Shown: positions 1,542 through 30,168, numbered from the stretch's first letter. The stretch is 34,634 nt of DNA from Stramenopiles sp. TOSAG23-6 (GCA_900128565.1 LT635951.1:1-34634); one strand, 5' to 3'. Numbers and translations are program-made. Notes: a model not told the origin generated them from the letters alone.

Positions 1542-4500
1542 ATGAAGTTAATACTTCAAATTCTAGGCACAGATAATGGTGATTCTAACCCATGCTTGCT
1601 TGCACAGTACAATGATCGTAAATACGTATTTAACTGTGGCGAAGGCTTCCAGCGATTTTGCTTTGAACACACCATTCGTTTAAAAGGTAAACTTGAAGCT
1701 GTTTTCGTTGATAAAATTGACTGGAAGTCAGTCGGTGGATTAACTGGTTTACTTTTGACTCTTTCCGATGCAGGGTCTGATTCTATTAGTATATGTGGAC
1801 CTATTGGTATTGGGAATTTATTATATGCAACCCGCCAATTTTTCCGACGAGATCGTCTAAGCTTAAAACTGACAGAGTTCAGTGATGAATCCACTTCGTA
1901 TGACGATGGTTCTCTCAAGGTAGTACCAATAAGGATTATTAGAAACAGTTCTAGCTCTATTAAATTACCAAAACTTTCCAAACAACAACTCTCTTGTATT
2001 GCCAATGTGAAAATTGTTGATAGGAAAGCGGATCATAAAAAGTTACCCAAGTCAACAATAGATCGTTGTGGAGGTGGTTTGCCTGCTTTTTCTTCTAGTG
2101 GTTCTGTTTCGCCTGCTGCTTTAGATCACTGTGGAGGTGGACCTGCTAGAAAGGAAATGGGTGGTTCAGTTGTTTCATACATGTGTCATCCATCATCTCC
2201 ACCTGGAAAGTTCTTTCCGAAAAAGGCTTTAGCGTTAGGTGTTCCTCGTGGTCCAATGTTTGGTCAGTTAGTGAAAGGTAAAACAATTACTCTACCGTGT
2301 GGTCGAGTTGTTAAACCTGAAGACTGCGTTGCTGAAAAAGTCTCAAGCCCAATTTTTGGAATGATTAGTTGTCCGTCAAAAGTATGGATTCCATTTCTTG
2401 TAAATCATTCTGGATTTGACCCTTATTTTATAGATTCTAGAAATGTTTTCGATCCAAAATTATCTAAAGTGAAAGAACATGTTGAGTGTTTAGTTCATAG
2501 CGCTCCTTTTTCAGTTGTTTCAGATATACGGTATAAGCGTTGGATGCTTCGTTTTGGGACTAAAGTGCAACACATATTTATAAATAGTGAGACATCTTCC
2601 CAGCGTTTTACCTTTGATGCTAGTAGTATAGCACAAGATATACTTCATGAGGTCAATCCCACAGTATTTCCTATTTTATTTCATAAAAAAAACCCAAATC
2701 ACCAAATTCGAAATTCAAAGTGGAATGTAAAAGTCAAACCTGCTCAACAATTACTTGTGTATAATTTACTCCCTGTAAAGAGTGTTGGGTTTGACTATTC
2801 TTATATTGAAGCTCGGGCAAACAAAATACAGAATCGAAAGAAACGTTACAGAACTAATGTTTTTACAAATAACAAAGTAATGAAAACAATATTGACTAAT
2901 CTCAACAACGAAATTCGTAACATTCTTCAAAATATGACAAAAACAAAACAAAATGTGCGCGATAATGATACAGTTGTTATTTCTGCTGTACATGTATGTT
3001 TTTTTTTTCAATTTCGAATTTTTTTTTTCATACGAAATTTCGTACCTAACAAAAACAAAACAAAAAAAATATTTTTTCACAATACATGATCCCGTGAAAA
3101 CGTCACGTAATAATCTTTTGAAAACGTCACGTAATAGACTTAGTGTCGATGCTTTGGAATTGGGTAGAGAACAATGTATATGTACGTTATATCCATTTAC
3201 ATTTTAATTTTTTTTGTTTTTTTTTGGTAGTAAATTTCGTACCTTACAAATGTTTTGAGTAAAAACAATATTTTTTCACAATATATCATCTCGAGATGTT
3301 AGTATTTCTTTCCTTGGTACTGGATCTGCGATTCCAACAAAATTACGCAATGTTAGTGCCATCTACATGGCGTTTGACTCTCATTTTCTTCAAGCTACTG
3401 GTGCTGTACCTGCTTCTTCAAGTGGGTTCTTAATGGATTGTGGTGAAGGTACATATGGACAATTATTACGCCTTGTAGGCCCAACAAAAATAGAAAAAAC
3501 TTTGGCTGAAATTCAGTGTATTTATATTTCTCATATGCATGCTGATCATAATCTTGGTATAGTTCGTATCCTCAGTGAACGTCCTGAGGGACAAGATGAA
3601 ATCACTGGCGTGGAGATTGAACCTGTACTTGTTATTGGTCCTTCAAATCTTCATAGATGGCTCTTGGAATATCAAGAAATCAATTCATCCATTGTCGGTA
3701 AGTGGACCTTTGTAAGAAATAGAGATATAATGACACCCAATAATTGTGCTGGTGCTGAACTTGCACGACGATGTGGCATAAATATTTTCAATATACGCGT
3801 GTTTCACCCTGCTGATGCATATGGCCTCATTGTTACAGCTTCTGGTGGTGTTCCTCGTACGCTAGGATGGAAAATTGTTTATTCTGGAGATACACGCCCA
3901 TGTGATGCACTTATAAGAGCTGGTCAAGGTGCAACATTGTTGATTCACGAAGCTACTCTTGAAGATGGTATGGAAGTTGAAGCAAGAGCAAAAATGCATT
4001 CTACAGTATCTGAAGCATTAGGCGTTTCACGTCGGATGAATGCATTTCGCACAATACTAACTCATTTTTCAGCGAGATATCCAAATGTACCCCCTCCTAC
4101 TTCCAATAGTAATACTATAAGGTACCAAGTTGGAACGCCAACTTTTGCAATAGGATTACAAGGTAATATAAATACACAAACTGCATGTTGTATACCAAAT
4201 AGATCTGCAACTAATATTGAAACGAAAGATATTGCAATGAATAATACAAAAATTAAAATTAATAATATTGAAACGAAAGATATTGCAATGAATAATACAA
4301 AAATTCAATTTAAAACTAACTCGGTAACGCCTTCAGTAAATACGACAGCTTGGCGTCCTTGTTCATATGCAATGAGTACTGATTTCATGAGAGTTTCATT
4401 TGAAAATTTGTTGTGGTTACCAAAACTCCTTCCTGTTATGCGAAGCCTTTATCAAAGTATGAATGGACTGGATGATGATGATGCCAAAGAAGAAGAAGAA

Positions 4501-4656
4501 TTAGTACTCGATGCTGCTCTTGGCCGAACTCGTGGTTCTACAAGCAACCGAGAGGATTTAAAGAGAAAAAATATTGACAGAGGCATCCCCATTATTTCTA
4601 CGGATTGTCTTAGTAATAAGAAAAATACAAATGATTTCAAAAGAAAAAAATTATAG
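1542..4656 (+). CDS. ELAC2: long-form ribonuclease Z (tRNase ZL); join(1542-2993,3088-3181,3287-4656), about 971 aa
   Basis: N-terminal pseudo-motif YVFNCGEGFQRF, flexible-arm GKFFPKKALALGVPRGP, FLGTGSAIPTKLRNVS, DCGEGTYGQL, metal-binding SHMHADH, YSGDTRP, LIHEAT, HST and LTHFSARY. Three ORF pieces join in frame once two family elements are removed. Confidence 0.95.
2994..3087 (+). other. non-canonical intron / introner-like element, copy 1 (94 nt, GT...AT)
   Basis: cat|GTATGT...CATACGAAATTTCGTACCTAAC...CACAATAC-AT|gat. The frame change (+1) matches. The first downstream AG (3137) gives an immediate stop. Confidence 0.85.
3182..3286 (+). other. non-canonical intron / introner-like element, copy 2 (105 nt, GT...AT)
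   Basis: tat|GTACGT...AAATTTCGTACCTTAC...CACAATAT-AT|cat. It contains an in-frame stop. In-frame AG alternatives exist at 3259 and 3295, so the 3' end is assigned by family consensus. Confidence 0.75.
4212..4305 (+). repeat. 43-nt direct duplication (period 51) in the RNase Z C-terminal insert
   Basis: TAATATTGAAACGAAAGATATTGCAATGAATAATACAAAAATT at 4212 and 4263, encoding NIETKDIAMNNTKI twice. Confidence 0.9.
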
Positions 4657-27896: not shown

Positions 27897-28413
27897 TTTC
27901 TAGCAAGCCTTGTATATATTTATTAATTCTCTGTTGGGACTTTCAAGAAAAAGTAATTGGAGAAAATGAAATCTCTCTCAGAGTATCTTCTTCTATATTT
28001 ATCGAGGAAAAAAAACGTATCCTCTGGATTCCTCTCTCTCGAATTTCGAAATCTTCGATGGCGATAAGCAGGTTTGTAATTTTCACTGTCAAATTTGAAT
28101 TTTTTCGAAAAGCAAATTTGAAAATTCATTTCCAGATTCCCAAATTTTGTTACAGAATTTTGTACCAATCGGCAATAATTCAAATCATTCAAATCTGGCC
28201 ATAAAGCCAATTCTTTCAATTCAAACAAAAAAGAAAGTGAAGAGAGAATTTCTTCAAAACGACATTCATAATTTCGTTCTTTCAGATTTGTCCAACAAAT
28301 TTTCGCATTTGAAGCATTAGAAACTCAAATAGACAACAAAGTATCACTGTCGTTGATCCAGGTGGTTGAATTTGTTGTTTTTTGTGTTTGCATAACGATA
28401 GCTAATACTCAAT

Positions 28414-30168
28414 ATGTCTTCTGAAGTTCAAACTCCAATCTGCTCGAATACTTCTTGTCTCCACCAGTTGGTACTTCGAGATAACAATTCAAAAGTTGAA
28501 CCAAAGATCATTCATCTTCATAGTAGTGGGAAAAGTTCATTTAAAGTAAGTTATTGTTTTCATACAAATAATCATTTTTCTCCTTCATTCTTGTTTATCT
28601 TAAACTTTTTTTTATCTTCATTTGTTGTTACTTCGATTACACTTCGTTTCTGTACCTATTTTTTCAGATAATTTGTGTAACTTAACGAAGCAAGTAATTT
28701 TAAAAAAATTCATTCAATACAGCTTGGAAGGAGTCGGTCTTCAGCTGATGTTGTCTTTAGTTCTAAAGGAGGTCCCCTAATGATTTCTAGAGTTCACGCA
28801 ATACTTTCTCGGTCTAAAGCATCTGAAAAGATTTCCGAGAATAATACTTTAATTGGCAATAGTATCAACAGTTTAAATAGTAAATCATCACTGGAAGTTT
28901 CTAAGAGTACTGTATGGTGGAAGATTGAAGATAATAATAGTAGAAATGGTATGTTTGTCAACTCTATTAAGTTAGCTGAGGCGACTCTGTCTCATGGAGA
29001 CATAGTGACTTTTGGTGGGGGAGGCACTCTCCCTTACGGTACCCATAAAAACAACATTGAATCTGATTATCAGTATGTATTTTTAAAAGTTTGCTCTAAT
29101 CAAGATGAAGATAATATATCAACAAACGAATATAAGGAAAAGAATAGCAAGAAAAATATGTTTCAAAGAAATTCTTTCCCGACAACGGGCTCTTCAAGTC
29201 GTCGGAAGCGGCCACTTACTGAAAAGATTGATCTTTCCTCGAAGCGTCCTAGACTTGATACATCATGCATTGTTTCAAATACGATGAATATACATAAAAA
29301 ACATGAAATACCAATAACGAAGGAAGGTGATAACGCGATAGCTACAGGGATTTGCGGGGATGGAGTCTCACTAAATTCACAGAAAAATGTTGATTTATCA
29401 ACTAAAAGCACTGCATTAGTTCCTTTTTCTTCTGTGCTTCCCCAAGGTACTGTCAAAGTTAATTGTTTGCAAGAAGAATTGACGTGCCCGATATGTTTGG
29501 ATTATTTACTTCAAGCTCACACCCTAGGATGTGGTCATTCACTATGTATGCTTTCAAAATTGAATTTCAAATTTTTCAAATTTATTTATTTTCGTACCAA
29601 ATTTTGTACCTAACATTATTTTTTGGAAATATTTTTCCACAATATATGTGCTCCGTGTATTGTAAAAACGCTTGAAAACAAACGAGCTTGTCCTTGTTGT
29701 CGTGCACCAACAACCAAGCCACCTATACGTTCACGTGTTCTAGATAATGCAATTAACAAATTATTGAAACAAGAAGGATGCGAGTCAAAATATTCTGAGT
29801 ACCTACACCGATTAAAAAAATGGGAAAAAGATATCAGTTTGAGAAAAGCCCAAGCAAAACAATTGAAAAGAGTTATATGTAACGCAAAGCGAGAAGGAAA
29901 GCATTTCCTCTGTATCACTGATAAATGGACAAGTAATGAACAACAAGTTTTTCAAAAAGGTGTTGCTCTTTATCATGGTGTTGCTCGAGTTGTATACTGC
30001 AACACCACAAGTTTGACAGCAGAGTATATAGAAAGTGCTTCAAAAGAAGAATTAAAGCTCGCTAGTTTAAATGTCGGTGTGGTAAATAAGAAATCAGTAT
30101 CAACCTTAGATGCATCAACAATGCGATCATTGTTACACATGTTCAGATTATATGGTGGCCGTGAATAA
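28414..30168 (+). CDS. FHA + C3HC4 RING E3 ubiquitin ligase (RNF8/CHFR-like); join(28414-28545,28723-29545,29648-30168), about 491 aa
   Basis: FHA FK|LGRS...PLMISRVHA...IEDNNSRNGMFVN...LSHGDIVTFG; RING CPICLDYLLQAHTLGCGHSL|CAPC...CPCCR is complete only after removing copy 10. Confidence 0.92.
28546..28722 (+). other. canonical GT-AG spliceosomal intron (177 nt)
   Basis: aaa|GTAAGT...TAACTTAAC...TTCAATACAG|ctt. The in-frame join restores the FHA LGR motif. Confidence 0.85.
29546..29647 (+). other. non-canonical intron / introner-like element, copy 10 (102 nt, GT...AT)
   Basis: ctat|GTATGC...CGTACCAAATTTTGTACCTAAC...CCACAATAT-AT|gtgct. It has an in-frame stop, and the first downstream AG (29686) would delete two RING cysteines. 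Confidence 0.9.

Follow-up and report, generated by a model that had tools for sequence, protein, structure and literature searches.

The window analysed here is the whole 34,634-nt stretch of DNA LT635951.1 (assembly GCA_900128565.1) from Stramenopiles sp. TOSAG23-6. It is compact, AT-rich eukaryotic DNA (GC 29-44% per kb) with about 16 long open reading frames (ORFs) in the standard code. Six unrelated genes in the window are interrupted by full-length copies of one short repeated element, which starts and branches like an intron and ends without AG. The six host genes are the following.

1542-4656, plus strand: tRNase Z (ELAC2-like) gene, host of copies 1 and 2, with Lactamase_B_4 (E 5.9e-15) upstream and Lactamase_B_2 (E 7.2e-15) downstream of both
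13322-14815 (ORF) and a second exon: TPR gene (Pfam domain search), host of copy 3
16932-18484, plus strand: TBC/RabGAP gene (Pfam RabGAP-TBC), with exons around copies 4-7
Around copy 8, minus strand: methyltransferase-like gene, tentatively assigned from a weak METTL13 match (E 0.33)
Around copy 9, plus strand: LisH/coiled-coil orphan gene, with a downstream ORF of 120 aa
28681-30168, plus strand: FHA-RING gene, two exons around copy 10

The copies of the element in the window are listed below.

2994-3087, plus strand: copy 1, 94 nt, in the tRNase Z/ELAC2-like gene
3182-3286, plus strand: copy 2, 105 nt, in the tRNase Z/ELAC2-like gene; branch motif CTTAC
14771-14870, plus strand: copy 3, 100 nt, in the TPR gene; flanking repeat AA/AA; spanned by the DNA contig X3 record 3
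17483-17587, plus strand: copy 4, 105 nt, in the TBC gene; first of a tandem pair
17588-17678, plus strand: copy 5, 91 nt, in the TBC gene; second of the tandem pair
17820-17916, plus strand: copy 6, 97 nt, in the TBC gene; starts GTATAT; flanking repeat TT/TT
18022-18123, plus strand: copy 7, 102 nt, in the TBC gene; has no stop in the host frame, alone among the copies
20181-20272, minus strand: copy 8, 92 nt, in the methyltransferase-like gene; starts GAATGT
22995-23086, plus strand: copy 9, 92 nt, in the LisH/coiled-coil orphan gene
29546-29647, plus strand: copy 10, 102 nt, splits the RING finger (CGHSL|CAPC) of the FHA-RING gene; spanned by the DNA contig X4 record 16
14530-14602, minus strand: decayed antisense copy, profile positions 32-94, in frame within the TPR-gene ORF 13322-14815

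End-to-end alignment placed the ten full-length copies (91-105 nt) exactly where the initial annotation of this DNA had delimited them. The alignment has 140 columns including 10-nt flanks, with a mean column identity of 64%; the pairwise identity among the copies is 0.61-0.84 (mean 0.72). A profile made from the ten copies, as that annotation had suggested, was run on the window and returned exactly these ten as full-length matches (E 3.8e-17 to 3.5e-11), together with the partial antisense match at 14530-14602 (E 1.2e-6), absent from that annotation, and four weak matches (E at least 0.07). The conserved blocks of the element are GTATGT, TTTCGTACCTAAC, a T-run, and CACAATAY followed by NN. 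The best-kept columns fall into four blocks: GTATGTTT at the 5' end, an A/T-rich middle with small palindromes, AAATTTCGTACCTAAC, and ATATTTTTTCACAATAY followed by two more bases; among these, the 5', branch and 3' blocks are kept in 8-10 of the ten copies. The motif TACCTAAC occurs 9 times in the window against 0.57 expected, and CACAATAY 12 times against 3.39 expected; none of 100 shuffles reached either count.

The individual motifs resemble those of an intron. The 5' splice-site consensus GTAYGY/GTATAT is present in 10 of 11 copies, counting the additional copy described below; copy 8, which had been taken to start with GT, begins GAATGT. The branch motif CTAAC is found in 8/10 window copies, and is replaced by CTTAC in copy 2 and CTAAT in copy 4. 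The distance from the branch-like A to the 3' end is 33-43 nt, as was first reported, and the T-run is located upstream of CACAATAY. An isolated TACCTAAC at 15456-15463 (minus strand; context TTTCATACCTAACTTTTGCAG) is antisense in the second exon of the TPR gene and otherwise without similarity to the family; it may be a chance occurrence or a remnant.

An eleventh full-length copy with the same ends was found outside the window, in an unrelated 3.2-kb metagenome contig (L003). It is sense to the ORF that it interrupts, and its exact removal mends the frame. This was the one true copy among the three loci from a pattern scan of metagenome contigs, the other two being chance matches. A pattern scan of genome contigs gave three matches, all by chance and in bacteria, and no further copy. 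Viral contigs gave 0 matches with the strict pattern and 117 stretches with the loose one; a profile scan of all 123 collected loci retained L003 only. No Rfam family fits the element in a scan of the window, where the only match is an 18S rRNA. The summed depth at 17617, which is not a copy number, was 48,072 in the metagenome run X3 and 15,715 in X4, compared with 4-8 for the flanking contigs. A depth about three orders of magnitude over the single-copy flanks suggests a very abundant family, which fits ten copies in 34.6 kb.

The initial annotation stated that no copy ends in AG, and this holds for every equivalent register. All registers allowed by the repeats at the junctions were enumerated for the 11 copies, and none places AG at the 3' end.

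Register 0: GT..AT; exceptions copy 3 (GT..AA), copy 6 (GT..TT) and copy 8 (GA..AT)
Register -1: TG..CA or TG..TA; exceptions copy 3 (AG..CA) and copy 6 (TG..TT)
Register -2: AT..AC or AT..AT; exceptions copy 3 (AA..AC) and copy 6 (TT..AT)

Because the ends carry a 2-nt repeat, the GT..AT, TG..YA and AT..AY registers are indistinguishable, and the cut register is ambiguous. Copy 8 starts with GA in register 0 and has neither GT nor GC in any exact register. The family has the GT 5' site of U2-type introns (10/11 copies) and a CTRAY branch upstream of a pyrimidine tract; the 3' AG is absent. Thus neither GT/GC-AG nor AT-AC dinucleotides describe it, AT..AC being possible in 5/11 copies only (register -2). 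U12-type introns have the 5' site RTATCCTT and the branch TCCTTAAC about 10-20 nt from the 3' end. The element is similar to them in these five AT...AC copies and in a branch that ends in TAAC; however, its 5' block is (AT)GTATGT and its branch is located 33-43 nt from the 3' end, and a U12-type assignment was rejected on these two features. The 3' end had been attributed first to CACAATAY together with the branch spacing. Only the motif is retained here: since the cut falls 2 nt after CACAATAY whatever bases are there, and the distance to the branch ranges over 10 nt, it is the motif and not the spacing that would set the 3' end.

The flanks of the copies carry the marks of a mobile element. 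The two exon bases before GT are identical to the last two bases of the copy in 10/11 copies (8 AT/AT, copy 3 AA/AA, copy 6 TT/TT), the exception being copy 9 (GT/AT). AT/AT is palindromic and uninformative; at the informative copies 3 and 6 the repeats are direct rather than inverted, which is the signature of a 2-bp target-site duplication (TSD). The inverted termini are minimal (GTAT/ATAC), with a terminal inverted repeat (TIR) of at most 4-6 nt. Tc1/mariner-type miniature inverted-repeat transposable elements have a TA target-site duplication and longer TIRs; this assignment was rejected, as the repeat here is AT, AA or TT and the TIR is short. Copies 4 and 5 lie head to tail with no exon between them and read AT-copy 4-AT-copy 5-AT, with one AT shared, the pattern that would be expected if one copy had already been in place and its duplicated AT had received the second. 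Removal of the pair (17483-17678) might be one 196-nt excision, from the 5' end of copy 4 to the 3' end of copy 5, or two successive ones regenerating AT|GTATGT.

All ten copies in the window are sense to the host gene, as was first claimed, and with L003 the count becomes 11/11 full copies (two-sided binomial about 0.001). The decayed antisense copy at 14530-14602 has kept its branch block intact. Its presence suggests that insertion at the DNA level takes place in either direction; it indicates either that selection retains none but the sense copies in exons, or that this is a rare antisense copy that chances to stay open. It appears to be translated within a low-complexity stretch. The strict sense orientation of the full copies points to a strand-dependent removal step at the RNA level and argues against excision from DNA. 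The mobile-element origin proposed at the outset is consistent with the multiple copies, the very high depth, the 2-nt direct repeat, the tandem pair and the antisense copy.

Contigs from two metatranscriptomes (X6, X7) and two metagenomes (X3, X4) were compared with positions 10000-29999. Copy 3 is spanned by the metagenome contig X3 record 3 (14356-15910, 0 gaps, depth 6.31) and copy 10 by X4 record 16 (29098-29789, 1 differing letter, 0 gaps, depth 3.9); at both sites the bulk DNA carries the element at a depth equal to that of the flanks. In the proteins P0001 and P0004, which were called on metagenome contigs, the exon runs into the element exactly as in the window. These data bear on removal at the DNA level, which the initial annotation had left open, either as programmed elimination similar to that of the ciliate internal eliminated sequences (IES) or as transposon excision in a somatic nucleus that leaves one 2-bp repeat. 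The ciliate IES are also short, lie inside coding sequence and have a 2-nt direct repeat of which one copy remains, and such a repeat is the footprint of precise pointer- or TSD-type excision. However, IES excision acts on DNA and is blind to orientation and to the direction of transcription, whereas the copies here show a strict strand bias and are present in independent bulk DNA contigs at flank depth. No empty-site joint occurs among the 15 of 231 joints listed, and the internal motifs that resemble splice signals would be left without a function. The orientation and the contigs speak against excision from DNA, which is considered very improbable.

The same contigs bear on the reliability of the 3' ends. 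An assembly or consensus error that hides true AG ends, a possibility that the initial annotation itself had raised, might be suspected in what looks like an amplified single-cell assembly with at least one homopolymer frameshift (C12 near 5590). Yet the same 3' block is present in 11 copies, the independent contig over copy 10 differs by one letter and no gap, L003 has the same ends in a different collection, and the loose-end consensus of many other copies reads ...CAAAATACAT. Since the metagenome contigs and their proteins carry the same sequence, such an error is excluded there, and the probability left to it is close to negligible.

Exact removal of the copies restores conserved protein domains at two sites. 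When copy 10 is removed exactly, the RING protein aligns without gaps across CGHSL|CAPC with two intron-less homologues, P0002 and P0003 (identity 34% and 41%). The alignment scores against these were 694 and 543 for exact removal, compared with 627 and 498 for the nearest GT-AG intron (29546-29686); the latter opens a 13-residue gap and loses two zinc-binding Cys that both homologues keep. At the TBC site, the Pfam RabGAP-TBC profile is matched over positions 23-92 before copy 4 and 94-133 after copy 5, and the missing residue is the split codon; removal of 17483-17678 yields YQQGMNLIAG. Every GT/GC..AG alternative for the pair removes 28 or more aa from the TBC domain, and the first AG does not keep the frame. 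Judged from the sequence, exact removal without AG is needed at the RING and TBC sites, and the restored motifs GHSL|CAPC and YQQG|MNLIA of the initial annotation are borne out.

The third motif put forward there, CVEH|NLAV of the methyltransferase-like gene, has weak support. The METTL13 chain 5wcj_A gives a motif-I-like match (E 0.33) at the copy 8 site, with an alignment that stops at ...CVE. Against it, a Pfam search of both halves of the gene gave no match, and a search of the second exon against 1.84 billion representatives gave two matches, both repetitive junk. For the remaining hosts, a search with the TBC first exon found no homologue of greater length, PDB searches with the short TBC exons gave nothing informative for copies 6 and 7, and a homologue search with the copy 9 gene returned nothing but its own near-identical copy. 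Retention of the elements would be damaging: read-through places a stop within the element in 8 of the 9 copies tested, the exception being copy 7 (102 nt, no stop).

Folding of the elements was also analysed, as some unusual introns are defined by pairing of their ends. Removal from RNA without the spliceosome, through an endonuclease-ligase or guided by structure, as has been proposed for the non-conventional introns of euglenids, diplonemids and Amoebophrya, would suit an element with canonical ends in no register and with variable boundary bases. Such pathways are discussed for the Amoebophrya introner elements (PMC7789003), and diplonemid non-canonical introns with paired ends are described (PMC12621601). 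However, those introns are defined by end pairing, and the consensus fold of the 11 copies has 0 pairs. The single-copy folds are weak and dissimilar (minimum free energy -3.7 to -12.2 kcal/mol; z -2.59 to +1.17), with no common end-joining helix. A terminal helix GUAUGU/ACAAUAC was tried and rejected, the variant copies 2, 6, 7 and 8 being without compensating changes. Moreover, the conserved blocks resemble a yeast-type 5' splice site, a branch site and a U-tract. A pathway independent of the spliceosome is therefore regarded as unlikely.

We favour, with slightly more belief than doubt, the explanation that the copies stem from an introner-type transposon and are spliced at a 3' end other than AG. 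The element would be a non-autonomous DNA transposon of about 90-105 nt that inserts at a WW dinucleotide, mostly AT, and duplicates it to give the 2-bp TSD next to the minimal inverted termini GTAT...ATAC. The 5' splice site GTATGT, the branch site TACCTAAC and the U-tract would all be supplied by the element itself. Selection would let sense insertions in exons alone survive, because they alone could leave the pre-mRNA. We infer this mode of transposition, removal from RNA by the major spliceosome, and the register of the cuts: the 5' cut would be at, or at most 2 nt before, GTATGT, and the 3' cut 2 nt past CACAATAY. In the most uniform register the intron would be GU...AU, with variants that end in AA and UU; the AU...AC/AU register is indistinguishable from it. 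The 3' site would be picked by the conserved 3' block of the element rather than by AG. A more specific proposal is plausible and is held with somewhat more doubt than belief: the spliceosome of this protist, or a dedicated factor attached to it, might define the 3' site of thousands of transposon-derived introns by the 10-nt motif CACAAUAY+NN instead of AG, while it keeps the GUAUGU 5' site and the CUAAC branch. On such a definition by CACAAUAY, the second catalytic step would accept U, A or C as the last intron base.

Several observations weigh against splicing of the elements with a non-AG end. No register gives uniform dinucleotides for all copies. Copy 9 does not obey the family rule: its 92-nt removal, as first delimited, meets a stop after 9 codons, and joining the 120-aa downstream ORF takes 94 nt (22993-23086, from a GT two bases further upstream, equivalent to 22995-23088, with the 3' cut two bases further downstream) or 91 nt, a departure of +2 or -1 nt. 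The same 5' flank of copy 9 is seen in another population. In-frame, stop-free AGs are located near copy 2 (-27 and +9), copy 3 (+9 and +12), copy 6 (+33 and +36) and copy 7 (+18), which confirms a caveat of the initial annotation, and given these some copies could be canonical. Furthermore, the first AG past the branch is in frame with the originally assigned 3' end in 7/10 copies, compared with about 1/3 expected. For copy 1, where the nearest GT-AG solution had been said to break the frame or delete key residues, the first AG (+50) is indeed out of frame; however, an open longer GT..AG intron, 2998-3295, could skip copies 1 and 2 together, and the case of copy 1 is thus weaker than was first thought.

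These alternatives would agree with canonical GT-AG introns that use the first suitable AG inside or outside the element, in which case the lack of AG would be an artefact of assuming exact removal. The two conserved domains speak against this, since the nearest such intron at copy 10 loses 13 residues with two conserved zinc ligands and each alternative at copies 4 and 5 shortens the TBC domain as described above. In addition, copy 8 has no GT or GC in any exact register, and the first AG downstream of the L003 copy is out of phase. Canonical splicing of the family is held to be quite improbable. A twin intron or an internal GT-AG step was considered separately and ruled out, as copy 1 contains no AG.

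The RNA data count on the same side. No listed metatranscriptome contig (X6, X7) bridges an element site, and no joint of precise removal is found among the 15 of 231 joints listed, which are mostly cross-joins between repeats. The RNA-library contigs hold unspliced copies with their flanks (X6 at 17587, X7 at 17586), and the ratio of element depth to flank depth has about the same magnitude in these libraries as in DNA. The listed contigs of these libraries are 187-397 nt long and lie in exons or intergenic DNA. One of them (16440-16698) is located entirely between the divergent SET (15781-16404, minus strand) and TBC (16932 onward, plus strand) ORFs; it is either a long transcript of a 5' untranslated region or promoter, or DNA carried over into the metatranscriptome. 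The DNA-like depth ratio and this intergenic contig suggest that the RNA libraries may carry DNA, or that the elements may be retained. The RNA contigs give neither support nor refutation of splicing.

If the elements were never removed, as gene-inactivating insertions or in pseudogenes, the unspliced copies and the lack of spliced RNA among these contigs would be accounted for. However, 6 of the about 16 genes in 34.6 kb would then be dead, including that for tRNase Z, and the ORFs are open for hundreds of codons on both sides of the elements. The copies have diverged to 61-84% identity and are not brand new, while the downstream exons are still open and carry domains, which makes dead genes unlikely. 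The same insertions are present in other samples (P0001, P0004), and the strict sense orientation would be left without an explanation. Retention of all copies is considered highly improbable.

The spliced-transposon reading can be compared with known systems. Introners are found widely, and their TSD commonly provides bases of the boundary (PMC9860276). The introner elements of Micromonas, Aureococcus, dinoflagellates and many others are similar to the present family: they are short, non-autonomous and high-copy, they intervene in unrelated genes, their TSD overlaps the splice boundary, and the element brings part of the splice signals. The described families have GT/GC...AG or AT-AC ends; whereas the present one has AG in no register, a TSD of 2 bp and inverted termini of 4 nt. 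In the large surveys of introners, families whose splice sites are unfamiliar are dropped if they lack RNA support (PMC12130899).

The nearest precedents come from Fritillaria and Amoebophrya. The larvacean Fritillaria borealis has abundant introns that end in AC or AT after a U-rich tract and are removed by a U2-type spliceosome; the authors tied them to introner transposons with weak sites, and the known adaptation consists of a duplicated U2AF, which assists this splicing, and of small nuclear RNA N6-methyladenosine (m6A) (PMC13326754). The non-AG ends after a U-tract are shared with the present family. Fritillaria is an animal, however; most of its introns also have a non-GT 5' end, and the introns concerned are many and unrelated, compared with one family with a yeast-like 5' site and branch here. 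In Amoebophrya, also a marine protist, repeated intronic elements have direct repeats over the exon-intron boundary and terminal dinucleotides that are not fixed; 8-20 nt inverted repeats form an end-joining hairpin, and there is no clear 5' site (PMC7789003). The repeats at the boundary are similar, but the Amoebophrya elements are hairpin-defined, whereas no such pairing is seen here and GTATGT and CTAAC are conserved. The non-conventional introns of euglenids and diplonemids also have variable non-GT-AG borders (PMC12621601, PMC4770533); their hallmark is extensive pairing of the ends, which was looked for here by folding and not found. In view of the AC/AT-ending U2-type introns of Fritillaria (PMC13326754) and the non-canonical introners of Amoebophrya (PMC7789003), the novelty was overstated as first put. 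In the present family, a 5' site and a branch like those of yeast occur together with a non-AG 3' end that a motif would define, and with no pairing.

No description of such a family was found in the literature searched, which did not cover supplementary tables, so that an earlier listing is possible; the available parts of the single-cell plankton genome papers do not mention unusual introns. Should the junctions be borne out by cDNA, nature would offer here a system in which the 5' site and branch are those of the textbook and the 3' end is not AG, with one sequence family repeated thousands of times in a small compact genome. It would single out the question of what selects the 3' splice site and how that site docks for the second step, which is harder to separate in Fritillaria and Amoebophrya, where both ends are scrambled. 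It would also mean that entire classes of introns in uncultured plankton escape those gene callers and introner surveys that demand GT-AG; here, roughly a third of the genes would be mis-annotated as truncated or split.

Some other features were observed. The 5' part of a eukaryotic 18S rRNA gene is located at 1-564 on the minus strand (Rfam RF01960, 534 bits, model positions 1-565) and is cut by the window end. A database search with the tRNase Z sequence likewise placed the DNA among the eukaryotes, at no finer level. In L003, the ORF downstream of the element copy stops at CAAG|GTAAGT (about 2300-2405, minus strand), a candidate conventional 5' splice site. The organism of L003 might be the same or a related one, and the same L003 stretch is also found with CCCTAAA-like repeats. 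In the window, a run of 12 C on the minus strand (about 5585-5600) lies between the ORFs 4773-5627 and 5572-12096, which overlap in different frames. This run is probably an assembly error in homopolymer length, by which a single gene of over 2,400 aa (EF-hand, B-box, WW, IQ) is split.

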